DNA from: an uncultured Candidatus Saccharibacteria bacterium
Lineage (GTDB): Bacteria > Patescibacteriota > Dojkabacteria > SC72
Length of the DNA: 64,000 nucleotides
Assembly: GCA_964405015.1 (NCBI GenBank)
Contig: CAYOME010000002.1
Coordinates: 68,174-132,173 of the forward strand
Reading direction: 5' to 3'
Shown here: positions 1,571 to 38,226 of the stretch, in pieces
Numbering within the stretch: position 1 is the first letter of the stretch
How the letters are laid out: each line of letters begins with the position of its first letter
The notes under the pieces: model-generated
Seen by the model: the letters and a program-made list of their open reading frames with translations, nothing else
Database searches by the model: none
Told to the model about the DNA's origin: nothing
Made by a program: the position numbers and the translations under genes

Positions 1571-2218
1571 TTAGAAATATCTACCAGAATGTTTACCATA
1601 TTGAATAATCTGATCTAATGCGGTACGAATGTTCGGGAATTCTTTTAATAGGCTTCTTTTGCACTGAATAGCCACTACAGTGCGATTACATTCAAACAAG
1701 TTCTTCATCTCTTCTACAAAAGTCCCAGTATATGCTAAATCCCAATTAACAAATTGTTTATCAAATTGCTTTATTTGTAATTCTAAATATTTAATAGGAA
1801 CAAGGAGATGGCCTGCAAAAGAATTAGCATCTTTTTCTATTTTATCGTATACAGAATTTTTGATACTCTCCATCCTCTTAAGATATTCATCCTTGTCTTT
1901 AATATCTGAGAAGAGATCCCTATGAAGAATATAGTGGCCGATTTCATGGCTAAGTGAAAACCTTAGTCGTTCTCTGCGACTATCCTGTGTGTATAGGGAT
2001 TCATCTATAACTACAACCTTATTACCCACTGTAAGAAAAGCTTCACCTCCATTTGAGAATTCAGATTCAAGTTGAGGTAAAATGTAGGGTTTAAGCTTCA
2101 GTCCTAATTCCATAATTTCTTCAACATCAATAGGGAGAGGGACTTCTTTTTTGTAGTAATCTTCTATCGTAGATAGTGCGAGATTTTTAATTTCCTCTTG
2201 GGTTCTTTGGGGGGACAC
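1571..2218 (-). CDS. ImmA/IrrE-family (DUF955) zinc metallopeptidase
   Basis: HEIGHYILH (HExxH) motif in a ~215-aa protein. Immediately downstream of and overlapping an XRE-HTH gene, the classic ImmA/ImmR arrangement. Confidence 0.6.
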   Translation of the reverse strand: MSPQRTQEEIKNLALSTIEDYYKKEVPLPIDVEEIMELGLKLKPYILPQLESEFSNGGEAFLTVGNKVVVIDESLYTQDSRRERLRFSLSHEIGHYILHRDLFSDIKDKDEYLKRMESIKNSVYDKIEKDANSFAGHLLVPIKYLELQIKQFDKQFVNWDLAYTGTFVEEMKNLFECNRTVVAIQCKRSLLKEFPNIRTALDQIIQYGKHSGRYF

Positions 2219-2651
2219 GATCTGGTGCAGTAATAAGTTTAAGTAAATCTTTTAAATCTTTCTCAGTAATTTTCTTTCCTCTCGCTTTTCGAAAAAATGC
2301 AGGTAAAATTGATAAATTGGATTGTAAATCCTGCGGTATTTCACCTCTGCTAATATCGGCTAAATCACACATATATCCATATTCTTCTGAATCGATTTTT
2401 ACACCAATTGCTTTTGCTACTTTCTTTAAGAAAAGCTTGCTCTTAGGTACTTTAAGAAGATTGTTCTCAATTTTACTTACTTGTGCAGGATCAAAATCAT
2501 ACTTTCTACAAAACTCTCTTAGGGTAAGATTTTTTGAGACTCTTTCATTGTAAAGCATCTCTCCAAATGAGGAGTAATCTTTTTTCATACTGTTTGATAT
2601 TTTTAACTTAGGCAGTTGGTACATTCTAATACAGAAGTTCTGTGTTGTCAA
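2187..2651 (-). CDS. XRE-family helix-turn-helix transcriptional regulator
   Basis: HTH_3-like segment LTLREFCRKYDFDPAQVSKIENN. 32-nt overlap with the downstream ImmA gene. Confidence 0.55.
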   Translation of the reverse strand: MTTQNFCIRMYQLPKLKISNSMKKDYSSFGEMLYNERVSKNLTLREFCRKYDFDPAQVSKIENNLLKVPKSKLFLKKVAKAIGVKIDSEEYGYMCDLADISRGEIPQDLQSNLSILPAFFRKARGKKITEKDLKDLLKLITAPDRVPPKNPRGN

Positions 2652-2699
2652 TTTATTACAACAGTGTGAACTCTCTTAGAACTTTTTGATATAATCTGT

Positions 2700-3035
2700 T
2701 TGATGAGGAAATATCAACATAAAAATCTTGCAAGTGGAGATTGGAATAAAAAATCATTCCTCGAACAAATGGCAAACATTGGTAGTGAGGTATACCGAGC
2801 TATTAACTGGAAGAACAAGGGTAATGAAGAATATGCACATATGGCATTTGTAAGATCACTTGAACTTTTTGATTTAACTAAGGATTCTAAACTAACATAC
2901 CCTCAATACAAAGAACTTTTAAGAATGAGAGAGATATGGGTAGACTTTTTCAAATATGAAAATGAATATAATTCTACCGGAGAGTCTCTTAATACATACT
3001 TTACAAACCTTACAGTTGCTTTTAAAAACAGATAA
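2700..3035 (+). CDS. Hypothetical protein (111 aa)
   Basis: ORF only. It is in the same reading frame as the RmlC ORF and separated from the conserved RmlC N-terminus by a single TAA. Confidence 0.35.
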   Translation: MMRKYQHKNLASGDWNKKSFLEQMANIGSEVYRAINWKNKGNEEYAHMAFVRSLELFDLTKDSKLTYPQYKELLRMREIWVDFFKYENEYNSTGESLNTYFTNLTVAFKNR

Positions 3036-3101
3036 CTTTTTTACTTATATATAGAATTTAAACCATTAAGTATTCCTGGATTAGTACTAATAACACCGAA
3101 T

Positions 3102-3626
3102 GTGTTTGGAGACAGTAGAGGCTTCTTTAAAGAAACATACAACAGAGAAGTATTTCAAGCAAATGGAATAGATATAGATTTTGGTGTACAGAGTAATCAT
3201 TCTAGATCTTCAAAAGGTGTGCTAAGGGGTATGCATTGGCAAAAAGAGCCATTTGCACAAGACAAATTAGTACGTGTTTCAAGGGGAAGAGTATTGGATG
3301 TAGCAGTAGACATTAGAGTAGGTTCTCCTACATTTGGTAAGTATGAAGCAGTAGAGCTTTCAGATGAAAACCACTATATATTCCTCGTACCTAAAGGTTT
3401 TGCTCATGGCTTTTTTGTATTGAGTGATATCGCTGATTTTGAATATCAGGTTAGTGCACCATACAACAAAGAAAATGAGGTGGCTCTTCTTTGGGATGAT
3501 CCAGATATCGGTATAGAATGGGGATTTAGTGAGGGAGAGCAACCACTTCTTTCTGAAAAAGATAGAGTAAATAAATTACTTAAAGATATAGATCCAGAAG
3601 ATCTTTTTAAATTTGTACATAAATAG
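3102..3626 (+). CDS. rmlC: dTDP-4-dehydrorhamnose 3,5-epimerase (RmlC). The conserved N-terminus extends in-frame upstream to ~3036 without a canonical start codon.
   Basis: VFGDSRGFFKETY...GMHWQ...RVLDVAVDIR..SPTFGKYEAVELSDEN...FLVPKGFAHGF. Cupin-type RmlC signatures. The track start is GTG 3102. Upstream in-frame residues EFKPLSIPGLVLITPN match the usual RmlC N-terminus. Confidence 0.8.
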   Translation: MFGDSRGFFKETYNREVFQANGIDIDFGVQSNHSRSSKGVLRGMHWQKEPFAQDKLVRVSRGRVLDVAVDIRVGSPTFGKYEAVELSDENHYIFLVPKGFAHGFFVLSDIADFEYQVSAPYNKENEVALLWDDPDIGIEWGFSEGEQPLLSEKDRVNKLLKDIDPEDLFKFVHK

Positions 3627-4488
3627 GATGGAAAGAATATTTGTATTTGGTTCAAGCGGTATGTTAGGAAACTACCTTTGTACACTGTTAGAAAGTAAAG
3701 GATATGAAGTAGAGAGAAATGATAGGACTTCCGGAGGGATAGATATTACTAAAGATGATGATGTAAGAACGGTAGTAAAAGATTCTGATGCAAGATTTGT
3801 AGTTAACTGTAGTGCATATACAAATGTAGAAAAGGCCGAAGAGGAAAGTGATATAGCTTTTGATGTAAATGCTAATGCTCCTAAATATATGGCACAGGCT
3901 TGTAAAGAATTTAATATTCCATTTGTTCATGTATCTACCGACTATGTATTCGGTGAAAACAAAGAGGATGGATATACGGAGGATTACAAGACCTTTAAGC
4001 CATTGAATGTATATGGTGAGTCTAAATTGGAAGGAGAAAAGGGGGTTCTAGAAGTCGGTGGTCAGGTATATATCTTTAGAACATCATGGTTGTTTGGACC
4101 TAATGCAACAAATTTCATAGAGAAGATATCTAAATATGCAAGAGAATTACCCGAATTGAAAGTAGTTACAGATGAGGTCGGTTGTCCAACATACGTAGGA
4201 GATCTTTCTAAGCATATACTTTCTGCAATACAAGGAGATATAAAACCTGATATATACCATGTGTGTAGTAGGGATATCTGTTCCAGATATGAATTTGCAA
4301 AAGAGATATTAAATATTCAAGGTATTGATACCCCAGTATTAGAATCTAAGTTAAAGGATTTTAATAGAAAGGCACAAGTACCTAATCGTTCTCAACTTCT
4401 TAATACAAAATTACCTGAAATGAGAACATGGAAAGAGATGCTTAGGGAGTATTTTGGTGTTCCGGATATTTCGGTTGTTGAAAAATAG
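3613..4488 (+). CDS. rmlD: dTDP-4-dehydrorhamnose reductase (RmlD)
   Basis: MERIFVFGSSGMLG... Rossmann N-terminus, YTNVEKAEEE, VSTDYVFGENKEDGYTEDYKTFKPLNVYGESKLEGE (YxxxK), RTSWLFG. 14-nt overlap with rmlC. Confidence 0.8.
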   Translation: MYINRMERIFVFGSSGMLGNYLCTLLESKGYEVERNDRTSGGIDITKDDDVRTVVKDSDARFVVNCSAYTNVEKAEEESDIAFDVNANAPKYMAQACKEFNIPFVHVSTDYVFGENKEDGYTEDYKTFKPLNVYGESKLEGEKGVLEVGGQVYIFRTSWLFGPNATNFIEKISKYARELPELKVVTDEVGCPTYVGDLSKHILSAIQGDIKPDIYHVCSRDICSRYEFAKEILNIQGIDTPVLESKLKDFNRKAQVPNRSQLLNTKLPEMRTWKEMLREYFGVPDISVVEK

Positions 4489-4520
4489 TGTTTTTTTTTG
4501 TACAATGAAGAGAATTACTA

Positions 4521-4573
4521 GGAGGAATACGAGCCATTGTCTATGTGACAATGTGTGTACGCCCTCCTTTTTT
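4521..4573 (+). terminator. Hairpin plus T-run, candidate intrinsic terminator for the rml transcript
   Basis: ggagg...CATTGTCtatgtGACAATG...ccctcc followed by TTTTTT. A perfect 7-bp inner stem with imperfect outer arms, between convergent rmlD (+) and the NYN gene (-). Confidence 0.4.
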
Positions 4574-5104
4574 GTACCTCAATTTGTCCTTTTCATATTG
4601 TATGTAGGTTTTGTATTGGGAAAAACCTTTTAGTAGAGAAGATTCCGATTTTGAATTAGGTATTATTATTGATTTTAATTTGTTCTCTTCCTGCAAAAAT
4701 TTGTGTAAACAAAGAAAGTCACCATCTCCGGATACAATTACTGCATTATCAAAGTTTTCATATTCTATTCTGCAGGAGTATAAGACGAGTTCTGCATCTA
4801 TATTTCCTTTAGATTTACCATCTTTGCTAATTACAGTTGGTTTAAAGATTAATTCGTAACCAGATTTTTTAAGTGAAGAATAAAGGAGCTCATTGTTTTT
4901 TAGGTAACCAATAAAAAGGAGAGCCTTCTCTACAAAGAATTTATGCTTAAGGTATATTCTAAATTTCCTAAAATCTAATTTCCAACCTCTATATATTATT
5001 TTATTACCTCTGTATATAGATTTTGATGTTCCGAGATTTAAATTCTGACTATCGATAAAAGCATAAGTTCGCTCTCTTTTTTGTGTTTTTTTCGTTTTTA
5101 TCAT
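4541..5104 (-). CDS. NYN-domain (LabA/DUF88-like) protein, putative RNase
   Basis: AFIDSQNL near the N-terminus, GNIDAEL, VIVSGDGDF. These are the conserved acidic residues of the NYN/PIN-like fold. Confidence 0.5.
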   Translation of the reverse strand: MIKTKKTQKRERTYAFIDSQNLNLGTSKSIYRGNKIIYRGWKLDFRKFRIYLKHKFFVEKALLFIGYLKNNELLYSSLKKSGYELIFKPTVISKDGKSKGNIDAELVLYSCRIEYENFDNAVIVSGDGDFLCLHKFLQEENKLKSIIIPNSKSESSLLKGFSQYKTYIQYEKDKLRYKKGGRTHIVT

Positions 5105-22022: not shown

Positions 22023-24098
22023 ATGAAATATACTGCTGCCCTAAAATATATATTTCTTTTTTTTCTTACAATCTTTTTTGTTCCAAAAGTTTTTGCACAA
22101 AATTATATTGAAATGAGTTCTGAGGGTGTAACTGTTGAAGCCAATATTAATGTAGATTTCTATTCCATTGTTAATGCAAACCCAATAACTGTAGAGATAG
22201 GGCAACCAAGTAATGTTGAGATTAGAGTTTTGTCACCTAGTGGATTGGGTATTTCTGGAAGACAGGTAGTAATTGTTTCCTCTGGATTAAATATTACTCA
22301 ACCTGTGACATTAACGAATGCGACTGGTAGGACAAATGGCTCTGTATATTCGAATGTACCTGGGACATATACAATCTGTGCTAAGGATACAACATTTGGA
22401 TATGATATTGTCATACAGAATTGTAAAACTTTGTATGTAGTGCCTGTCCCTATACCTTCTATTTTACCTGAACCCCAATATACAAAAGGTTTAAGTAATA
22501 TGGTTATGTGGAGTAGTTTAGGTAATAACTATCGATACAACGTTCAAGTAAGTGAATTCTCTGATTTCAATACAGTACTCAGTGAGTCTGGATATACAAC
22601 AAATACCTCTTTTGAATTTAATGGGCTGGAAGATGGAAAGATGTATTTTTACAGAGTTAGAGCCCAAAATGAATATGGTGGTGTAAGTAGTTGGTCTAAT
22701 ATTGTTTATAGTGTACAGGATAATGTGCCTCCAGTTATTGAAGTATTAGATCTTGGTAATGTAGGTGAGAATGATACTGTTAACTGGAGTGGAACTGATA
22801 TTGTTACTATGATCTTTAGGGTTAGTGATAACTTGCAGTTAGCTAGTGCAAAACCAATTTGTATTACCTCCTATGACATGAGCTATGTATGTACCAATGA
22901 TTACGTGCTAGAAGGAGATATTCTAACAGTTAATGTAAGGTTGGGAGATTTAGAAAGAGTATCTGGGGTATATTTGAGAGATAGCTATGAATTTTGTATA
23001 GAGGCAAGTGATACAGCTACAAATATTACAAAAATGTGTGATATTCGTATAAATATCTCACAAGGAGAGTATCCTGTCGAACCAGCAAAACCACCTGTTA
23101 TAGATAGAATTGAGAAGGGTTTAGAGGATTTAGATGTTATTTTGGATAATACTATCGGTAAATTAGATCCTACGGATCTTGATAGGGTAAGTACTACTAC
23201 ATCCATAGTTACTGCTACGTCAGCAATCGCGATTGCTGCTGGTAGTTTTGGTAGTATTCCATATTTCTTTCTTCAGTTATTCCTAAATCTACTTTCTTGG
23301 TTGGGCTTTAGGAAGGGTGTTAAACCTGTTGGTTTTGTATATGACTCAGTTACTAAAGAACCTATTTCTCAAGCCATTGTAAGAATCTTTGATGAGGAAA
23401 ACCGTATTGTATGGTCTGATGTTACTGATTCTAAGGGATATTTTAGTGCTAGCTTAAAAGATGGAAAATACAGGATTGTTGTTCGTGTTCCTGGGTATTT
23501 GTATCCTTCTAATGTTGTATTTGGTAAGGAGGATTATCCTTTAACCAATGTTTACCATGGTGAGGAGTTTACAATAACTTCAGATGATGAACCAAACTTT
23601 GCTGTTCCTTTGGATCCTCTCGAAATATCAAAATTACGAATATCTTTTGAAACAATTTGGGCTAGATTTAAATTTCTAATTAATATATTGCATGTTTTGT
23701 TGTTTGTATTTGGTCTAGTCTTTGCTTTGTATACTTATTACAATTTCCCTTCTACATTGTCCTTAATTGTATTACTTTTGTATATACCTTCTTTCTTCTT
23801 TATCTTACGATATATTTTTGTTGTTTCTGATGAATATGGAATTGTTAAAAACAAAGATGGAGAAAGGCTTGAGGGGGTAGTTGTTGGTTTGAGGGAATCT
23901 GAATTCGACAAGATTATTGCTAAAAGGGTTACTGATTCTAGGGGTAGGTATAGGTTTCTTGTAGATGAGGGCCGTTACTATATTGAAATATTAGATACTG
24001 GATACAAAGTAGAGGATATTGAGAGTGGGGATGAGGTATTAGTTAAGAAAGAGGAATTGGTTACAAGGGATATTGTATTATCAAGGATTGAAGAGTGA
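22023..24098 (+). CDS. Large surface protein with signal peptide, Fn3-like domain and a C-terminal TM + CarboxypepD_reg-like module (paralogous to the C-terminus of the 2184-aa protein)
   Basis: Signal/anchor MKYTAALKYIFLFFLTIFFVPKVFA. Fn3-like YRYNVQVSEF...YFYRVRAQNEYGGVSSWS. The C-terminal block LGFRKGVKPVGFVYDSVTKEPISQAIVRIFD...GKEDYPLTNVYHGEEF...IAKRVTDSRGRYRF is alignable to the giant protein's C-terminus. Confidence 0.6.
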   Translation: MKYTAALKYIFLFFLTIFFVPKVFAQNYIEMSSEGVTVEANINVDFYSIVNANPITVEIGQPSNVEIRVLSPSGLGISGRQVVIVSSGLNITQPVTLTNATGRTNGSVYSNVPGTYTICAKDTTFGYDIVIQNCKTLYVVPVPIPSILPEPQYTKGLSNMVMWSSLGNNYRYNVQVSEFSDFNTVLSESGYTTNTSFEFNGLEDGKMYFYRVRAQNEYGGVSSWSNIVYSVQDNVPPVIEVLDLGNVGENDTVNWSGTDIVTMIFRVSDNLQLASAKPICITSYDMSYVCTNDYVLEGDILTVNVRLGDLERVSGVYLRDSYEFCIEASDTATNITKMCDIRINISQGEYPVEPAKPPVIDRIEKGLEDLDVILDNTIGKLDPTDLDRVSTTTSIVTATSAIAIAAGSFGSIPYFFLQLFLNLLSWLGFRKGVKPVGFVYDSVTKEPISQAIVRIFDEENRIVWSDVTDSKGYFSASLKDGKYRIVVRVPGYLYPSNVVFGKEDYPLTNVYHGEEFTITSDDEPNFAVPLDPLEISKLRISFETIWARFKFLINILHVLLFVFGLVFALYTYYNFPSTLSLIVLLLYIPSFFFILRYIFVVSDEYGIVKNKDGERLEGVVVGLRESEFDKIIAKRVTDSRGRYRFLVDEGRYYIEILDTGYKVEDIESGDEVLVKKEELVTRDIVLSRIEE

Positions 24099-31061: not shown

Positions 31062-34000
31062 TTACGCTCTTTCTACTTTAAGTCTAGTATTTATATATAT
31101 CTTACCCTTTGATTTGATAGTTGTCTTACCATCAATGATCCTAATGCTGTTATCAGCACTTTCAATTGCAAAATTACCGCTCTCATTGAGATCAAATGAA
31201 TATCTACCTTTTTCATCAGTGATTCTCTTTGCAACAATTTTTTCAAAATCTTTATCCTTAAGAACTAATGTAATGTTTGAAGCTGGAGTACCATTTGGAT
31301 ATGTTACTTTACCTAGTTTTTTACCCCTTCCACTAATACTTTTTATCAAGACAAAGACTGTAGGAATATACAAAAGAAGAAGTACTAGGTTAATGAGGTT
31401 TGATTCTTTGTTGTAGACATATATAGCAATGGTTAGGCCAAGTAGGAAGATTGCACAGTTAAGCAAAGGTAATATTAAGGATATCCCACTTCTTAAGACT
31501 GTTAATATTTTCTTTGTAGCTATATCTTCTTCAGGATCTAAAGGTATTACAATGTTTATTTCATTTTCTACTAATCGAACTTTTTCTCCATGGTAAACAT
31601 TTGAGAAAGGATAGTCTTCTTTTCCAAGGATTAATCTTGAAGGGAATTTGAAATCCCTTTTCTTAATATCAAGTATGTAATCCCCTGTATTTAGACCGAG
31701 ACGGAATTTACCTTGTCCGTCAGTAACGCTTGTATCTACTAATTTCTGGGAGAGATCATATACCCTAACGATAGCTTGTTGAAGGGGAGCTCTCGTAATA
31801 GAATCATATATATATCCAGCTGGTAATCTCTTCCTTCTAAATCCCAATGTACTTAATATATTTACAAATATTTGAGATATGGAATATCCTAATTGACCAA
31901 TATTTCCGAATATCGAGGCAAAACCAACAGATACTGTTACGGCTGTAGTCGTTGCAGCCACTGTTGTTAAATCTTCAGTCTGAATGTTTCCCAATGGCGT
32001 GTCATTTAAAGAATCTAAGGCTTTTGTTAAGGCACCTTCTACAGATTCTGTAATGTTCTTGAAAAGATTTGCACTGCTTGATGGAATATTCACTATTTCT
32101 TTTGATATCTCTTCTCCTTGTCCACCAGTACCACTTAGACCATCTGCGATCCAATACATAACCCCAGAGATACTAGCTTGAGATACGGTGACATTAGAAC
32201 CCTCAACTTCTTTTTTCTGAGGGAAATTACCAGTGTAAAGTATTCCATTTGGACAATCTTTGTTTACCTCTTCTAAGGAAATTGCTTCTGGACATATTCT
32301 AAATGCATTATCATTATCCTTTTTGATAACGTAGAGGGTAAATTTATCAGTTAATCCATGGGATTCATTTATCTTTACAACACTCTTACCCTCTTTAGGG
32401 GATGATTTAATTATTGCATTACTCCAATCTCTGTTGTCAGTGAATGAAATAGGGAGATCAGCAATTATATATTCTTCAGTAAGAACCCTTATCTTCTGTA
32501 CTCCAGTTTGTGCACCTTCCAGACTACTTACATCAATATCTGTATTGTCTAAAAGTATTGTGGATATATCTTCTGGTTTGTTTACAATGATAGAATATGT
32601 TTTCCCTGTATTACTCTCAATGTAGTTAGTTTCTACATTTGCTGAGTTAATAGCTTTAGCTCTAAAGGAATATTCAACACCTGGTTGGAGATTTCTAAAT
32701 ATTACTCCACTTGTATTGCCCCAAGAGGCATAGCTCCCCCAAACAGGAGTATCTACTAATGATTGAGTAGAGTAATCAAGATATTTTCCAGATATTTTAT
32801 CCTGTATTGCAAATTTAGTTGCGGTAGGGTTTAGGTTCCTATCAAACTTTATCCTTCCGGATGTACCTCCAACAATTTCAAAGGTTAAATCTTTTGGTGT
32901 ATTAGCCCATGTTGTAACTGAGATATCTTCTGACCAAGAAGAGTAGACCTCTTCGGAATTAATACTCCTTACTCTAAAATTGTATGTAGTATTTGGTGGT
33001 AAGGTATTTAGTTTAAATACCTGAGATATCCTTTCGTCAGTATGTATCACTGCAGTATTTGTAAGTGTTCCATCATTAGTAATATTCCCATTTGTATTTA
33101 TGTCTACTATTTGGTATCTGGTATTAGAAGGGTTATTATTTTTGTTTACAACTACCTCTATTGAAGAAGAGCTTATAACTCTAGCCGAAAGGGTTGTTGC
33201 ATTGGAAAGGGTATATGTACTTACAACTTGAGAACATTCAGTTTCAATATTGTTAATATTTTTTGCTTTTACACAGAATGAATATTGAGTATTAGGAGTG
33301 AGACCTTGAAGAGTAATACCTGTATTTCCCCCTATTTCTTCATATGTTTTCCAAAGAATTTCAGAAGAGAGTGTATTTGTTGAAGGTGTAACATATTTTC
33401 CACTCTTTGTTTCGGTAAGAGTATATAGAGTTGTATTTATATTTCCTTGGTTGTTAACTACAATTTTTAATGTTGTAGTATCAATTGCTTCAACAGATAC
33501 AATACTTGGTGCTTTTACTAAGGTTGTAAATGTTACTTCATTACTAAAGTTTGTATCCACTAAATCAATATTCTGAGCTTTGGCTCTAAATACGTATGTG
33601 CTGTTTGGAATTAAACCATATATTCTTTTACCTTCAAGTGAACCTAATTGAGTGTATGTGGAATAGTGGGGGGATTCTTGCAACAACTGTGTCTCGGAGT
33701 TAAAGTAAAGACCTGTATTTTTCTCCTCGATCAAATATTTTGTAGAAGAAGAGTTGTTTAAAGGATCTATTTGAATGTTTACACTCTCAGCATCAAAATC
33801 TTCTGATGTAATCTCTATTAAGGAAGGTACCTCTGCAAAGGTAGATGCAGAAACGGTATTAGAGAATGCACTCTCTGCAAGATTGTTGTAAATCTTGAAC
33901 TTTCTTACATATGTTGTATTTGGAATTAGTGAGTCTTCAGTACATGAAGTAATATCACTTCCTAAACATGTTTTAATCAAATCTCCATTTTCATTGTATA

Positions 34001-37000
34001 CCTTAATTCCTAATACTGAATCTGTATATGCAGAAATATTCCAAGTTATTTGATTCTTTGAATCAACTGTAGGAGTTAATGCCGATATTGATGACAGAGA
34101 AGATGTAGATGAAACGGTTGAGGAGTATGCAGTTTCAATATTTTCTGTATTTCTACCTTTTACTCTAAAGGTATATGTTGTACCCGATTGTAATCCCGTG
34201 ACTGTAATGGAAGGTGTAGCTCCTTCTAAATGCCCCCAGAAAGCAGTAGGTACCAATTCCCCTGTCGTTAGATTTACGTACATTCCTGTAAAAGTTTCTT
34301 GTATTAGTAATTCTGTTAGATTAGGGTTTGTCTCTTTATCAATACCTACAGTCATTTGTGTACTCCCAATTGTATTTACTGAAGAAATACTAGGTACTAC
34401 TGCTAGAGTATATGCATTTACTTCTGAAGAATATGCTGATTCCTCACCTGCGAAGTTTCTTGATTTTACTCTAAAGGTATATTGGGTATTTGGAGAAAGA
34501 TTAATAGCGACATCAGTAGTACTTTGTATCCAATCTTGAATTCCATTACTACAATTAATACTTACGCATTCAAAGAATATTCCAGAATCGCCAGAGGAGA
34601 GATTGTTTACTCCTGTACCACTTAAAGAAATCGATGTTGTTGAGAGTGGTCCTGCATTTAATACAGGTACTGAAGAATGTGTATATATTGTTAAATCAAA
34701 GGAATATGCTGTCTCCACCTGATCATTGTTTCTCGCTTTTACCCTAAATGTATATCCCGTATTGTTAGAAAGGCTTGTTACATTCGCAATGTTTGTTGTT
34801 GTCCAGGTATTAATATTTGTATCACATGAACCTTCACAATCGAAGTAAAGTTCTCCACCATTTACTGGTTGAGGTGCAGATATTGTAATCGAGTTTGATG
34901 TCTTTGTTCCTTGATATTGGATCTCTGGTACAGAGATTAATGTGTAAACAGAATCTGAATTTGATGCTTGGCTTTCAGCCTCTGAGTTGTAAGCTTTAAC
35001 ATATCGAGTATATTGTTTGTTTTCTAAAAGACCAGTCTCATCACAATATGTGAGGTTTTCTCCAACACATGTTTTAACAAGATTGTTTTCCTCATCATAT
35101 ATTCTAATACCATCTTCTCCATTCGCATTATCTGTAAATGACCACCGAATTGATGTAGTTGAAAGACCAGTACCTGAGAGGGTAGTAGGTGATACTGGAA
35201 TATCTAATGTTCTAAATGTATTTGTCGAAGACCAATTACTTACTGATCCACTACTATCCCAGAAGCGAATTCTCCAGTAGTAGGTTGTACCATTTGTAGT
35301 TATTGCTGTTCCAGCATATGGTATTTCTGGTGATCTTGAATTGCTTGGTATTGGTGTTACTGCAGTTTGATTTGAATCCCACATTACGGTACCAGTGAAT
35401 GTTGCATTACTGTTTACCTCTATCTCGTAATATGTTGCAGTATCTCCAGTATCAGAGTCATTAAAGATTGCACTAAATTCAGGAGTAATATCTGTAACTC
35501 TAGTTGGATTGGTTAATCCTTCAGTTTGAAGAGAAGTAGGTAGTCCTGGGGTGGTGTTCATACCAAAACTGCTAGTAGTAGACCAATCAGAAACAGTTCC
35601 ACTGTTATCCCAGAACCTAATTCTCCAGTAGTAAGTAATACCATTTAATGTAAGAGTAGTACCTGCGTATGATATATCTGAACTTCTAGCTCCAATGGCT
35701 ATTGGTGTAATTGCAGTTTGGTTGGAGTCCCACATGACAGTACCTGTAAATGTGTTGTTAGTATTAACCTCTATTTCGTAGTATGTTGCAGTATCTCCAG
35801 TATCAGAGTCATTAAAGATTGCACTAAATTCAGGAGTAGTATCTGTAACTCTAGTAGGATTGGTTAATCCCTCAGTTTGTAGAGAAGTAGGTAGTCCTGG
35901 GGTCGTATTCATCCTAAATGTTGCAGTAGAGGACCATCCTCCAACAGTTCCATAGCTATCAGTAAATCTAATTCTCCAGTAGTAAGTAGTACCGCTTAAT
36001 GTAAGAGCTGTTCCTGCATATGTAACAGCAGGAATTTGAGATCCAGAAGCAACTGGAGTGGAAGCAACTTGTCCTGTATCCCACATTATTGTGCCTGTGA
36101 AAGTGTTGTTGGTATTAACCTCAATTTCATAGTATGCCATATTATCGCTATCAGGATCAGAGTAGGTTGCCTTAAAATCGGGAGTGATATCTGTTAATCG
36201 AGTAGGGTTTGTTAGATCATTTACCAGAAGTGCCGAAGGTGTCGTAGGAGCTGTATTCATTTGGAAAGTTGATACAGTAGACCATGCTCCTACAGTTCCA
36301 TAGTTATCAGTAAATCTAATTCTCCAGTAGTAAGTAGTACCGCTTAATGTAAGTGCAGTACCTGCATATGAAATATCTGAACTTCTTGTCCCAATAGCTA
36401 TAGCTGTCATTGAAACTTGTCCAGTATCCCACATAACGGTACCCGTAAAGGTATTGTTAGTATTAACTTCAATTTCATAGTAGGTTGCAGTATTCCCTGA
36501 ATTGGGATCATTAAAAATAGCACTAAATTCTGGAGTAGTATCAGTTACTCCAACAGGATTTGTAGCACCTTCAGTTAGAAGAGATGTAGGAGCTGTTGGT
36601 GCTGTATTCATTGTAAAATTCGCAACTGCAGACCAAGTTCCTACTGCCCCATTATTATCCCAGAACCGAATTCTCCAGTAGTAAGTAGTACCGTTTAAAG
36701 TAAGAGCAGTACCAGCATATGAGATATCAGGACTTCTTGCTCCGATTGCTGTTGCGCTCATCGCTACTTGTCCAGAATCCCACATAACGGTACCAGTAAA
36801 GGTATTGTTGGTATTTACTTCTATTTCGTAGTAAGTGCCTGTATTTCCTGCGTTCCCATCATTAAAGATTGCACTAAATTCTGGAGTAGTATCAGTTACT
36901 CCAACAGGATTTGTAGCACCTTCGGCTAGAAGAGATGTAGGAGCTGTTGGTGCTGTATTTAATACTACAAAGTTTGCAGTAAACGAACCATCGGCAGTTA

Positions 37001-37616
37001 CATTTGTGTTTGTTCTTGGATTTGCTGTAGAGCCATCACTCCATTGGGAAAAAGCGTAACCTCCATTTGGTACTGCGGTTACTGCTGTACCACTACTACC
37101 TCTACAAATTGATTGAGAGGTAGTACCCGAAAGAGTACCTCCAGTACCTGCTGTGTATGTTAGTGTATATCTAAGAAGGTAGTATGTAAGCGTAGTTGTT
37201 CCACATTCCCCACAGTCATCATATCTTGTACATGAAGCAGTTGTCGTAGAGCAGCTTGTATTGGTTGCTGTATATCCAGTAGGTGTTACCGGAGTACAAC
37301 TATCACAAGCACCACAATCAGGCTCACAGTTATCACAGCAGTATCCTTGACCAGCATAGAATTCTGAAGAGTAACAATTATCGGCACCTTCATATCTACA
37401 TCCTCCAGGTCCAGTACATACTCCTAATGGTGAATTATACTCACATCCACTCGGACAAGTTTGTGCCTCTATTGGTGAGGATTTCGGAGTAACAAGAAAA
37501 ATGCTTAAAAAAGTTGCAACAAAAAGTACAAAAAGTGTAAATATGAAAAGAAAATTCTTCTTATTTTTAGTTCGAACTCTAATCATTATTTTTGTTACTT
37601 CCTTTTTTTCTTTCAC
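31062..37616 (-). CDS. Giant cell-surface protein (2184 aa): N-terminal anchor, Cys-rich module, >12 Fn3-like domains including 5 near-identical tandem copies, C-terminal TM + CarboxypepD_reg-like module
   Basis: N-terminal TM FLFIFTLFVLFVATFLSIFLV. A 20-Cys segment (CPSGCEYNSPLGVCTGPGGCRYEGADNCY...CCDNCEPDCGACDSCT). Repeated ...TYYWRIRF.D..G.VG.WS... Fn3 signature. C-terminal LGFRRKRLPAGYIYDSITRAPLQQAIVRVYD...GKEDYPFSNVYHGE...IVAKRITDEKGRYSF. Confidence 0.75.
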   Translation of the reverse strand: MKEKKEVTKIMIRVRTKNKKNFLFIFTLFVLFVATFLSIFLVTPKSSPIEAQTCPSGCEYNSPLGVCTGPGGCRYEGADNCYSSEFYAGQGYCCDNCEPDCGACDSCTPVTPTGYTATNTSCSTTTASCTRYDDCGECGTTTLTYYLLRYTLTYTAGTGGTLSGTTSQSICRGSSGTAVTAVPNGGYAFSQWSDGSTANPRTNTNVTADGSFTANFVVLNTAPTAPTSLLAEGATNPVGVTDTTPEFSAIFNDGNAGNTGTYYEIEVNTNNTFTGTVMWDSGQVAMSATAIGARSPDISYAGTALTLNGTTYYWRIRFWDNNGAVGTWSAVANFTMNTAPTAPTSLLTEGATNPVGVTDTTPEFSAIFNDPNSGNTATYYEIEVNTNNTFTGTVMWDTGQVSMTAIAIGTRSSDISYAGTALTLSGTTYYWRIRFTDNYGTVGAWSTVSTFQMNTAPTTPSALLVNDLTNPTRLTDITPDFKATYSDPDSDNMAYYEIEVNTNNTFTGTIMWDTGQVASTPVASGSQIPAVTYAGTALTLSGTTYYWRIRFTDSYGTVGGWSSTATFRMNTTPGLPTSLQTEGLTNPTRVTDTTPEFSAIFNDSDTGDTATYYEIEVNTNNTFTGTVMWDSNQTAITPIAIGARSSDISYAGTTLTLNGITYYWRIRFWDNSGTVSDWSTTSSFGMNTTPGLPTSLQTEGLTNPTRVTDITPEFSAIFNDSDTGDTATYYEIEVNSNATFTGTVMWDSNQTAVTPIPSNSRSPEIPYAGTAITTNGTTYYWRIRFWDSSGSVSNWSSTNTFRTLDIPVSPTTLSGTGLSTTSIRWSFTDNANGEDGIRIYDEENNLVKTCVGENLTYCDETGLLENKQYTRYVKAYNSEAESQASNSDSVYTLISVPEIQYQGTKTSNSITISAPQPVNGGELYFDCEGSCDTNINTWTTTNIANVTSLSNNTGYTFRVKARNNDQVETAYSFDLTIYTHSSVPVLNAGPLSTTSISLSGTGVNNLSSGDSGIFFECVSINCSNGIQDWIQSTTDVAINLSPNTQYTFRVKSRNFAGEESAYSSEVNAYTLAVVPSISSVNTIGSTQMTVGIDKETNPNLTELLIQETFTGMYVNLTTGELVPTAFWGHLEGATPSITVTGLQSGTTYTFRVKGRNTENIETAYSSTVSSTSSLSSISALTPTVDSKNQITWNISAYTDSVLGIKVYNENGDLIKTCLGSDITSCTEDSLIPNTTYVRKFKIYNNLAESAFSNTVSASTFAEVPSLIEITSEDFDAESVNIQIDPLNNSSSTKYLIEEKNTGLYFNSETQLLQESPHYSTYTQLGSLEGKRIYGLIPNSTYVFRAKAQNIDLVDTNFSNEVTFTTLVKAPSIVSVEAIDTTTLKIVVNNQGNINTTLYTLTETKSGKYVTPSTNTLSSEILWKTYEEIGGNTGITLQGLTPNTQYSFCVKAKNINNIETECSQVVSTYTLSNATTLSARVISSSSIEVVVNKNNNPSNTRYQIVDINTNGNITNDGTLTNTAVIHTDERISQVFKLNTLPPNTTYNFRVRSINSEEVYSSWSEDISVTTWANTPKDLTFEIVGGTSGRIKFDRNLNPTATKFAIQDKISGKYLDYSTQSLVDTPVWGSYASWGNTSGVIFRNLQPGVEYSFRAKAINSANVETNYIESNTGKTYSIIVNKPEDISTILLDNTDIDVSSLEGAQTGVQKIRVLTEEYIIADLPISFTDNRDWSNAIIKSSPKEGKSVVKINESHGLTDKFTLYVIKKDNDNAFRICPEAISLEEVNKDCPNGILYTGNFPQKKEVEGSNVTVSQASISGVMYWIADGLSGTGGQGEEISKEIVNIPSSSANLFKNITESVEGALTKALDSLNDTPLGNIQTEDLTTVAATTTAVTVSVGFASIFGNIGQLGYSISQIFVNILSTLGFRRKRLPAGYIYDSITRAPLQQAIVRVYDLSQKLVDTSVTDGQGKFRLGLNTGDYILDIKKRDFKFPSRLILGKEDYPFSNVYHGEKVRLVENEINIVIPLDPEEDIATKKILTVLRSGISLILPLLNCAIFLLGLTIAIYVYNKESNLINLVLLLLYIPTVFVLIKSISGRGKKLGKVTYPNGTPASNITLVLKDKDFEKIVAKRITDEKGRYSFDLNESGNFAIESADNSIRIIDGKTTIKSKGKIYINTRLKVERA
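35200..36960 (-). repeat. Five tandem ~349-351-bp near-identical repeats (116-117-aa Fn3 units) inside the giant gene
   Basis: The recurring DNA block ccagaaNNNaattctccagtagtaagtaNtacc appears at ~35272, 35621, 35971, 36321 and 36668. Protein units begin NTAPTAPTSLL / NTTPGLPTSLQ and end ...TYYWRIRF(W/T)D..G.V..WS....F.M. Confidence 0.85.
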
Positions 37617-38226
37617 TGTATGATCCTAAAAACCAACCCCCAAGAAGGAGCGCAGGAATCAATATTATTAAAAATATATATTTAATCTCGAATTTCTCAT
37701 CATCTACTTTCTGCTCATCATCTAAAGTGATCTTTGCATTCTCATCCTTAACTACAGAAAGTGCAAACAAATCTTCAATATCTTTTTCTCCAACCTTAAT
37801 CTTTATTTCATGGCTCCTCTCTTCTAAATTCTGAATACTAAAAAGTACAAACCAATTACCATTTTCATCAACAGTTGCAGAATACTCCTGATCTAATATA
37901 TATATTGAGATATTATCATTAGGATTACCAATTCCTGAGATTTTAACGGTATCTTGATTGTGAACTTCAATATCTCCATCTTCATTTAACTCTGCTTCCT
38001 CGTTATTTATTGCAACGTAATCCAAATTGGGATGCCTAGTAAATGCATCCTCTTCTGCAAGAAGTGGATTTACATTTAAAATGAGTAAAAATGCTGTAAT
38101 TATTAGAGAGAAGGAGCTTTTTATTATTTTTTGCATGAATATATTTATAAAATATATAGCTTGAATGTGGATTGGTACAACCCTTTCCACTACTAATATT
38201 AAAGCAGAATTGATTAAAGCTATCAA
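37579..38226 (-). CDS. Secreted/anchored hypothetical protein (N-terminal signal, C-terminal TM)
   Basis: SFSLIITAFLLILNVNPLLA signal-like segment and C-terminal IFLIILIPALLLGGWFLGSY helix. Immediately upstream of the giant surface-protein gene. Confidence 0.4.
   Translation of the reverse strand: MIALINSALILVVERVVPIHIQAIYFINIFMQKIIKSSFSLIITAFLLILNVNPLLAEEDAFTRHPNLDYVAINNEEAELNEDGDIEVHNQDTVKISGIGNPNDNISIYILDQEYSATVDENGNWFVLFSIQNLEERSHEIKIKVGEKDIEDLFALSVVKDENAKITLDDEQKVDDEKFEIKYIFLIILIPALLLGGWFLGSYSERKKGSNKNND

Follow-up and report, generated by a model that had tools for sequence, protein, structure and literature searches.

The tandem array described here, found in a window of 64,000 nucleotides (the whole stretch of DNA analysed), is very probably an old and selectively maintained set of five Rha78A-N-type (PF25788) β-sandwich domains in a giant surface protein of Dojkabacteria, which evolves slowly and with short-patch exchange between units. 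The units are not near-identical, nor is the array the product of recent duplication.

Tandem Repeats Finder reported a sole array (period 351, 4.5 copies, 76% matches, score 1361, at 35349-36941), and a nucleotide unit profile recovered just five full copies, which lie between 35210 and 36959 on the minus strand (E 1e-100 to 1e-110). The same profile found no further copies elsewhere in the 64-kb window, ruling out additional donor copies there. The five units lie head to tail (351, 351, 348, 351 and 351 nt; 35208-36959, minus strand) and encode products U1 to U5 of 117, 117, 116, 117 and 117 aa (Table 1). An earlier note on this DNA, in which the strand of the repeats was unstated, had described five tandem units in a large predicted surface-protein gene, and both this description and its consensus motif agree with the array and its translation in one intact open reading frame (ORF). 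The reverse complement of the TAC-TAC-TGG (YYW) motif occurs at 35274, 35625, 35976, 36324 and 36675; all five unit positions in the note fall 2-7 nt from these motifs, but its spacing of 349/350/350/347 should read 351/351/348/351. The probable start of the gene is the ATG at 37586, from which the product is 2174 aa long and identical (100% match) to database protein P0001 (2174 aa). A small upstream gene overlaps this ATG by 8 nt, and its counterpart (48% identity, E 1e-58) is kept at the equivalent place in L001, which carries the closest orthologue of the large gene. Judged from its sequence, the product of the large gene is predicted to be a giant surface protein.

Table 1 Features of the array and its surroundings (positions in the window)
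Feature	Positions	Strand	Remarks
Small upstream gene	37579..38226	-	start Met31, ~185 aa (probable); predicted signal peptide and C-terminal transmembrane helix
Whole gene	31062..37616	-	one intact 6.5-kb ORF, 2184 aa from GTG
N-terminal hydrophobic segment	37491..37547	-	aa 24-42; hydropathy peak 2.8; basic residues before, 'IEA/Q' after
Distal 'head'	36969..37457	-	Cys-rich region and divergent InlB B-repeat domain
Unit U1, Ig_Rha78A_N domain	36609..36959	-	aa 220-336; PF25788 E 1e-18
Unit U2, mosaic	36258..36608	-	aa 337-453
Unit U3	35910..36257	-	aa 454-569, 116 aa; PF25788 E 7.5e-13
Unit U4	35559..35909	-	aa 570-686
Unit U5, last unit	35208..35558	-	aa 687-803
U1 high-identity tract	36858..36959	-	partner in U2 36507-36608
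U2 high-identity tract	36287..36370	-	partner in U3 35939-36022
U4 high-identity tract	35767..35909	-	partner in U5 35416-35558
Nine Fn3 domains	32607..35207	-	about aa 804-1670
C-terminal membrane-anchor module	31065..32099	-	hydropathy and domain matches

The five units belong to Pfam family PF25788 (Ig_Rha78A_N), the N-terminal β-sandwich of GH78 rhamnosidases, and are like Fn3 in fold only. The whole protein matched this family with 289 bits (E 1.4e-87) and single units with 67.9 and 49.1 bits (cut-off 27.4), covering positions 1-101 of the 105-position profile; PF25788 was the sole match of single units against Pfam, including fn3 (PF00041), at E values up to 1. For the AlphaFold model of U1 (pLDDT 97.7), the top four Foldseek matches in the PDB were to 6I60 and 3W5M/3W5N (TM 0.81-0.84, rmsd 1.8-2.7 Å, E 1e-7 to 1e-6), and the unit sequence itself matches domain N of rhamnosidase structures 3W5M and 6I60 (E 3e-4). 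Canonical Fn3 structures aligned to the unit model with TM 0.43-0.57 and E above 1e-3, and the name 'Fn3 unit' used in the earlier note is accordingly right for the fold and wrong for the family. The protein as a whole is not a GH78 alpha-L-rhamnosidase, an assignment we considered and rejected because Pfam detects no rhamnosidase catalytic family in it and because NCBIfam models NF041572 and NF041573 match only the N-domain-equivalent region, scoring 150 and 133 bits where 1800 and 1720 are required. The unit profile matched 10,747 representative proteins, of which 575 reached E 1e-30 or better, and Ig_Rha78A_N arrays among such proteins reach ~20 units. With more than 10,000 representative proteins carrying the domain, the novelty of the array is therefore low; the 'rhamnosidase N-terminal' domain appears to serve widely outside enzymes, in tandem copies, as a stalk or for binding.

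The predicted domain order is signal peptide, Cys-rich head, InlB B-repeat, five Rha78A_N units, nine Fn3 domains and a C-terminal transmembrane anchor. Export and anchor features comprise one N-terminal and three C-terminal hydrophobic segments, identified by hydropathy and sequence inspection, of which the N-terminal one (aa 24-42) is probably a Sec signal peptide, its cleavage site being read from the sequence alone. The Cys-rich region has 15 Cys within aa 54-138 and is followed by a divergent InlB B-repeat domain (PF18998) at aa 150-216. Downstream of the array, PF00041 matches seven stretches (E 5.9e-24), and a motif count gives nine Y-x-F-R-V-K-x-x-N-type motifs. Self-BLASTN of this Fn3 part detected no nucleotide self-similarity apart from one 27-nt match, bearing out the earlier observation that the array is the more self-similar of the two. 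The anchor module consists, in order, of a weakly hydrophobic segment, RRKR, CarboxypepD_reg, two transmembrane helices and a second CarboxypepD_reg/SdrD_B-like domain, and is also found in another protein encoded in the window (22023-24098; 35% identity, E 6e-59). No recognised adhesive domain was identified in the protein. We infer a surface location and a stalk role: the signal peptide at the N terminus would direct export and the C-terminal multi-helix anchor would retain the protein in the membrane, while the nine Fn3 and five Rha78A_N domains would form a long stalk with the Cys-rich and InlB-B-repeat head displayed at its tip. Binding surfaces may also be offered by the Rha78A_N domains themselves.

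Nucleotide identity among the ten unit pairs is 63.4-82.9% (mean 71%), being 82.9, 71.2, 67.6 and 78.9% for the adjacent pairs U1/U2, U2/U3, U3/U4 and U4/U5, respectively. Amino-acid identity is 59-84% (mean 69%) and reaches 80% in two of the ten pairs (83.8 and 80.3%); U3 is the most divergent unit, with 59-67% aa identity to the other four. The units had earlier been called near-identical and ascribed to recent duplication, a reading to be abandoned should nucleotide identity fall below 80%. Three of the four adjacent pairs and nine of all ten are below this value, and dS is at least 0.65 in every pair, so neither part of that description holds. Because dS is 0.65 for U1/U2 and 0.79 for U4/U5, the closest pairs, and ~1 or saturated (to above 1.5) for all others, duplication or homogenization of whole units was not recent. 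Across unit pairs, pS is 0.44-0.76, dN 0.09-0.35 and dN/dS about 0.1-0.3, and the five units are old domains under purifying selection. Such selection would have held the units while they diverged to 63-83% identity, with slow evolution at the DNA level.

Strong purifying selection would also be expected of units that serve mainly as ligand-binding modules, for example multivalent ones for a host cell-envelope glycan, with patch exchange reshuffling their loops. Long motifs (TNP..VTD.TPEFSA, YYEIEVNTN..FTGT.MWDSG and TYYWRIRFWD) are kept across 29 units from many species and variation is concentrated at residues about 62-80 and 102-112, which fits this reading, as do the distal, N-terminal position of the array on the predicted stalk and the association of the domain family elsewhere with carbohydrate-active enzymes. 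Motif conservation in a β-sandwich may, however, be purely structural; we found no binding function for GH78 domain N in the literature, and rhamnose binding by SaRha78A is known to involve another domain, the module CBM67. A mainly ligand-binding role is thus unlikely, though compatible with an old, selectively maintained array. Less probable still is the more specific proposal that a Dojkabacteria-wide attachment protein recognises the host through this array, in which five sugar-enzyme-derived β-sandwiches (one to ten in relatives) would bind host envelope polysaccharide multivalently and tract exchange would reshuffle the binding loops. If this were true, short-tract exchange would be a mechanism by which an episymbiotic CPR bacterium adjusts its host range.

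Against this background of old divergence, three of the four adjacent pairs share short tracts of high identity. The U1/U2 tract spans 102 nt with 4 mismatches (96.1% versus 77.5% in the rest of the pair) and contains a 53-nt exact match; the U2/U3 tract spans 84 nt with 5 mismatches (94.0% versus 63.3% elsewhere) and a 49-nt exact match; and the U4/U5 tract spans 143 nt with 8 mismatches (94.4% versus 68.3% elsewhere) and a 57-nt exact match. The boundaries of these tracts were picked after seeing the data, and the permutation of identical-codon run lengths is the only unbiased test. By that test, the runs are 17 codons in U1/U2 (P = 0.0015-0.003), 15 in U2/U3 (reached by no shuffle among 2000-5000) and 18 in U4/U5 (P of 0.001 or less), with P at most 0.003 for these three of four adjacent pairs in each of three permutation runs. 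Among non-adjacent pairs in the window, no run had P below 0.005. The units are mosaics as a result: the first 102 nt of U2 resemble U1 and its nt 239-322 resemble U3, and the N-terminal part of U5 resembles U4 (98% aa). Synonymous codon choice in TYYWRIRF is genome-specific (ACT-TAC-TAC in the window versus ACA-TAT-TAC in L001), and U4 and U5 are 80% identical to each other in amino acids and 79% in nucleotides, whereas identity to any L001 unit is 70% aa or less. Like tracts occur in four other orthologous arrays.

Concerted evolution, which the earlier note had offered as an alternative to duplication, therefore survives in part, as exchange of 84-143-nt tracts at 94-96% identity in three adjacent pairs; recent homogenization of whole units does not, given the dS values. 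It is partial also in that U1 is still nearest its orthologue, unit 1 of L001 (L1; 88% aa). Some homogenization was nevertheless recent, because the array is the most homogeneous at the DNA level of six compared (63-83% versus 54-76%) and its two best pairs have 80-84% protein identity. A single unequal-crossover history was tried for the mosaics and rejected: the N-terminal part of U2 resembles U1 and its C-terminal part U3, and the N-terminal part of U4 resembles U5, leaving no single duplication junction. Since the patterns misfit one junction, we describe them as short-tract conversion without a specific history. As a mechanism we infer that gene conversion or unequal recombination now and then swaps patches of ~80-140 nt between adjacent units, and so would yield mosaic units. 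The array offers a compact, clear case of probable gene conversion at sub-domain scale among bacterial repeats.

The predicted surface protein is conserved across Candidatus Dojkabacteria (Patescibacteria/CPR), and its gene is syntenic there. The orthologue in L001 has the same neighbours as the window gene (UDG, NDK, HI0933-like, radical SAM, DEAD helicase, epimerase and HAD) and encodes six units rather than five, its first unit being orthologous to U1 and its last (unit 6, L6) to the C-terminal part of U5 (76% aa). Orthologues have 1, 2, 3, 4, 5, 6 and 10 units, so that unit number does differ when the locus is compared across relatives, as the earlier note had anticipated. However, it is equal in six orthologue pairs that are 54-86% identical, and the one difference met at 70% identity is that between the window and its closest orthologue. 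Within ten 90%-identity orthologue clusters, whose member lengths serve as a proxy for direct strain comparison, there are no 117-aa length steps: complete proteins are equal in length or 1-15 aa apart, and larger differences (222 and 271 aa) are gene calls without the N-terminus, with arrays unchanged. No conspecific genome was found for the window: the 90% cluster of P0001 has one member, P0001 is linked to no recorded contig, scanning metagenomes with the Fn3 segment adjoining the array gave 62 matching patterns with no relative among them, and the window's own genome is absent from the GTDB species representatives. Equal unit number at 54-86% identity and the lack of 117-aa steps argue against rapid strain-to-strain variation, and assembly collapse is unlikely because the longest exact matches between units (49-57 nt) are shorter than ordinary reads and every unit is distinct. 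This indirect evidence does not support the strain-level variation and assembly collapse previously proposed. Units may have been gained or lost within the window's species on occasion, and gain or loss would otherwise be confined to deep divergence.

These observations bear on two further readings. A recent or fully homogenised array of Periscope type, with frequent slipped or unequal recombination, strain length variation and a collapse-prone assembly, could draw on the two adjacent pairs at 80-84% protein and 79-83% nucleotide identity, the in-register exact matches of adjacent units, which are long enough for RecA-dependent recombination, the presence of recO in the window and the sixth unit of the closest orthologue. 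We consider it improbable given the mean identities, the dS values, the intact ORF with five distinct units and the constancy of length and unit number among orthologues. It is very improbable that metagenome assembly, through a chimeric repeat path or a mixture of strains, created the array or gave it a false unit number and mosaic pattern. The contig is indeed metagenome-assembled, and at the exact stretches shared by adjacent units a small-k de Bruijn graph could switch paths, but those stretches are shorter than typical reads, no stop codon interrupts the 6.5-kb frame, and none of the five units is truncated or out of register. Both end units have orthologues in the L001 array, and orthologues assembled independently share the architecture, with 5 or 6 units and mosaic tracts like those in the window.

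An old, slowly evolving array with short-patch exchange has mainly a corrective value: the locus is probably a stable, diverged domain array, for which flags such as near-identical repeat, likely collapse or contingency locus would be misplaced. It also documents, across Candidatus Dojkabacteria, a predicted giant surface protein of a kind that is an obvious candidate for host attachment. To our knowledge, this phylum has no cultured members, and our literature search on Dojkabacteria surface proteins and on rhamnosidase-N-type repeats in CPR found nothing relevant.

The units share family and predicted fold with domain N of the GH78 enzymes SaRha78A from Streptomyces avermitilis (3W5M/3W5N) and DtRha from Dictyoglomus thermophilum (6I60), at 26-28% identity and with a common Y-x-W-R/K-[IV]-R-x-W-D...WS core. 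GH78 enzymes carry a single such N-terminal domain on an (alpha/alpha)6 catalytic barrel, whereas the window protein has five tandem copies and no catalytic domain. Closer in arrangement are proteins of Patescibacteria and uncultured bacteria with tandem Ig_Rha78A_N arrays, such as P0011 (9 units), P0005 (10 units) and P0121 (21 matched stretches), in which the same unit, with identity of up to 63% across the array, is repeated head to tail without linkers. These proteins often have DUF2341 (PF10102) where the window protein has its Cys-rich head and InlB B-repeat, and many, unlike the window protein, lack an Fn3 stalk and a C-terminal anchor. SiiE and LapA-type proteins are stalk-forming fibrillar adhesins with Ig- or Fn3-like repeats, and the window protein resembles them in its predicted signal peptide, diverged β-sandwich stalk, distinct terminal region and anchor. 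It differs from characterised fibrillar adhesins in its stalk domain (Rha78A_N), its CarboxypepD_reg/transmembrane anchor and its host phylum, Dojkabacteria. With Periscope Proteins (SasG/Aap, Rib and Sgo_0707 SHIRT arrays; Whelan et al. 2021, PMC8201768) it shares tandem folded domains of more than 50 aa (116-117 aa here) and, as predicted from its sequence, a surface location, an N-terminal head and a C-terminal anchor, the last being a transmembrane module rather than LPXTG. Periscope repeats are highly similar at the DNA level and change in number between similar strains; the screen for them required repeat identity of at least 80%, and adjacent domains of the model example are 82-100% identical (PMC8201768), which further argues against a Periscope-type reading of the window array, where identity averages about 70%, synonymous substitution approaches saturation and no length steps are seen within orthologue clusters. 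Adjacent domains of large multidomain proteins are usually less than 50% identical (PMC8201768), a value that the window array (59-84%) exceeds, placing it between ordinary multidomain proteins and Periscope Proteins.

The tandem array is real and rightly placed, but the similarity of its units was overstated in the earlier note. Tandem Repeats Finder reported this as the sole array (period 351, 4.5 copies, 76% matches, score 1361), and it is enclosed by a single unbroken minus-strand open reading frame of 2184 aa from GTG; the likely start of this giant gene is the ATG at 37586, giving the 2174 aa of its database protein P0001. A nucleotide profile of the unit matched the five units U1-U5 (E 1e-100 to 1e-110) and detected no sixth copy in the 64-kb window. 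The reverse complement of TAC-TAC-TGG (YYW) recurs with a spacing of 351/351/348/351, and each of the five coordinates first proposed lies 2-7 nt from it, so position, period and copy number were correct, as were unit length and consensus motif; the strand, which is minus, had been left unstated. GC content is higher in the array (35208-36959; 39.5%) than in the giant gene (36.0%) or the window (32.7%), consistent with a Thr/Gly/Ala/Pro-rich composition, and foreign origin is not indicated.

Table. Features of the array, the giant protein and associated genes (window coordinates unless marked; U1-U5 in protein register).
Feature	Position	Strand	Length	Remark
Open reading frame of giant gene	31062-37616	-	2184 aa	
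Array, Tandem Repeats Finder	35349-36941			
U1	36609-36959	-	117 aa	YYW motif at 36675
U2	36258-36608	-	117 aa	YYW motif at 36324
U3	35910-36257	-	116 aa	YYW motif at 35976
U4	35559-35909	-	117 aa	YYW motif at 35625
U5	35208-35558	-	117 aa	YYW motif at 35274
U1/U2 tract	nt 1-102 of unit			96.1% identity vs 77.5% elsewhere; exact match 53 nt
U2/U3 tract	nt 239-322 of unit			94.0% vs 63.3%; exact match 49 nt
U4/U5 tract	nt 1-143 of unit			94.4% vs 68.3%; exact match 57 nt
Basic N-terminus, hydrophobic segment, then IEA/Q	aa 24-42			probable signal peptide
Cys-rich region	aa 54-138			15 Cys
Divergent InlB B-repeat	aa 150-216			PF18998
Five Rha78A_N units	aa 220-803			
Nine Fn3 domains	about aa 804-1670			
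Conserved region	about aa 1680-1850			no Pfam family
C-terminus				weakly hydrophobic segment, RRKR, CarboxypepD_reg, two strong transmembrane helices, second CarboxypepD_reg/SdrD_B-like domain
Anchor module	31065-32099	-	last ~310 aa	
Gene of 691-aa protein	22023-24098	+	691 aa	adjoins recO
Upstream gene	37579-38226	-	about 185 aa	probable start Met31

The array is ancient, constrained and homogenised only locally. The units had been called near-identical and taken to imply recent duplication or concerted evolution, yet nucleotide identity over all pairs is 63.4-82.9% (adjacent pairs, U1/U2 to U4/U5: 82.9, 71.2, 67.6 and 78.9%) and amino-acid identity 59-84% (adjacent: 84, 67, 59 and 80%); nine of the ten pairs lie below the 80% nucleotide identity that the earlier note itself took as the lower limit for recent duplication. 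Nei-Gojobori estimates give pS of 0.44-0.76 and dS of 0.65 for U1/U2 and 0.79 for U4/U5, with dS ~1 or saturated in all other pairs, and dN of 0.09-0.35, hence dN/dS of roughly 0.1-0.3, indicating purifying selection on the units. For the non-repeat rest of the gene against the closest orthologue, dS is ~1.7 and dN 0.20. The contrast drawn with the Fn3 domains downstream was borne out, self-similarity being much higher in the array: nucleotide self-comparison of the Fn3 region revealed nothing beyond a single 27-nt match.

High-identity tracts occur in three of the four adjacent unit pairs (U1/U2, U2/U3 and U4/U5). In permutation tests scored by the longest identical-codon run, these pairs gave p <=0.003 in every one of three runs, the U2/U3 run being equalled by no shuffle, and no non-adjacent pair of window units reached p <0.005. 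The concerted evolution previously suggested is partial. U4 and U5 share 80% aa identity with each other vs <=70% with any unit of L001, the locus of the closest orthologue. At the invariant TYYWRIRF, four of five window units use ACT-TAC-TAC (U5, ACC-TAC-TAC) and five of six L001 units ACA-TAT-TAC; these genome-specific synonymous codons are a small but clean mark that units have been homogenised within each array, in the core that is conserved most. Orthology is kept at the array ends, U1 being nearest to unit 1 of L001 (88% aa) and U5, in its C-terminal third, to the final unit there (76%); interior units are mosaics. Similar tracts are present in the arrays of related loci L002, L003, L005, L007 and L008. 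The simplest reading would be that neighbouring units now and then undergo gene conversion over short tracts, or exchange unequally; a single unequal-crossover history was rejected, as none fits all three mosaics.

Unit number, counted as matches to the unit HMM, is five in the window, P0003, P0004 and L008, six in L005 and the closest orthologue (P0002, L001), at least six in the partial P0010, ten in P0005, four in P0016, three in each of P0006-P0009, two in each of P0013-P0015, one full plus one truncated in P0021, and one in P0036. Numbers are equal between orthologues at 86% (P0003/P0004, P0006/P0007), 76-78% (P0006 and P0007 with P0008), 71% (P0014/P0015), 58% (P0013/P0014) and 54% identity (P0008/P0009). 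Complete members of ten 90%-identity clusters of orthologues have the same length or differ by 1-15 aa, and larger gaps (222, 271 aa) reflect gene calls without the N-terminus, with identical arrays. Unit gain and loss is therefore real but slow. No conspecific sequence for strain comparison was found among P0001 contig records, its 90% cluster, metagenome contigs or GTDB species representatives. In a different protein with nine Rha78A_N units and a DUF2341 N-terminus (P0011, P0017-P0020), five variants >99.6% identical are all 1554 aa; one, P0019, has five substitutions packed into seven residues (aa 811-817, DSTTVSD to IDGGVSN), which looks like strain-level micro-conversion from a neighbouring unit. 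In the distant orthologue P0021/P0259, ~40 residues are missing in frame from the start of the second unit ('...FTMDIPTAHYYEIEVN...'), apparently a relic of out-of-register deletion inside the array.

Indirect evidence argues against assembly collapse: the reading frame is unbroken, each of the five units is full-length and differs from the others, the longest exact stretches common to units measure 49-57 nt, less than the length of an ordinary read, and orthologues from independent assemblies have the same architecture. Because they lie in register at a distance of 351 nt, these stretches could in principle let a single unit be lost or gained in frame on rare occasions, consistent with slow turnover among species.

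As a description of fold, the earlier label 'Fn3-like' can stand; by family the units are Ig_Rha78A_N (PF25788, 'Rha78A-like N-terminal immunoglobulin domain'). Pfam assigns PF25788 to the whole protein (E 1.4e-87) and to each unit (single units, E 1e-18 and 7.5e-13, profile positions 1-101 of 105), in which no other family appears at E up to 1. A PDB sequence search retrieved domain N of SaRha78A (3W5M) and a Dictyoglomus rhamnosidase (6I60). The seven-stranded AlphaFold model of U1 (input, 29 units; pLDDT 97.7) has its closest PDB counterparts in these N domains (TM 0.81-0.84, rmsd 1.8-2.7 A), ahead of canonical Fn3 domains at TM of just 0.43-0.57. The protein is not an enzyme, and a rhamnosidase function was rejected, as NCBIfam rhamnosidase models cover the N-domain-equivalent part only (133-150 bits vs cut-offs of 1720-1800). 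The unit itself is common: the 29-unit profile has hits in 10,747 representative proteins at E <=0.001, with 575 of them at E <=1e-30, including arrays of ~20 units in proteins of ~6000 aa, and among the close matches are many Patescibacteria proteins with an additional DUF2341.

The giant gene lies among housekeeping genes (UDG, NDK, HI0933-like flavoprotein, radical SAM, DEAD helicase, epimerase, HAD), with SecA and RecO genes farther away in the 33% GC window. P0002 (70% identity) has a matching neighbourhood on contig CAZULJ010000002.1. The small gene directly upstream extends 8 nt past the ATG of the giant gene, and L001 has its counterpart in the corresponding place (48% identity, E 1e-58); its product, with a signal peptide, weak Big-like middle and C-terminal transmembrane helix, is probably a co-translated partner. 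The anchor module shares 35% identity (E 6e-59) with the C-terminal end of the 691-aa protein, whose gene is also found in L001, and looks like a shared, uncharacterised membrane anchor for Dojkabacteria surface proteins. Named homologues are Candidatus Dojkabacteria, as are six of seven related loci. The CAZULJ010000002.1 record (L001/L002) is titled 'uncultured Candidatus Saccharibacteria bacterium', and L006, a 4.1-kb contig with the same Dojkabacteria-type gene (JAVEUZ010000083.1), was assigned to a 'Flavobacteriaceae bacterium' bin; every other relative bears the Dojkabacteria label, and the probable explanations are a taxonomic mislabel and a wrongly binned contig, respectively.

The model first proposed for the array corresponds to the Periscope Proteins, which were screened as repeats >50 aa with >=80% identity and change repeat number between similar strains; adjacent domains of large multidomain proteins usually share <50% (PMC8201768). 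The window array falls between the two: as a whole it misses the >=80% level, and its orthologue clusters give no sign of rapid length change; assignment to the Periscope class was rejected. The protein that carries the array is predicted to be an interesting, uncharacterised Dojkabacteria surface protein, and the array, an ordinary example of a kind already well known, is predicted to work like the stalk of diverged beta-sandwich repeats in fibrillar surface proteins.
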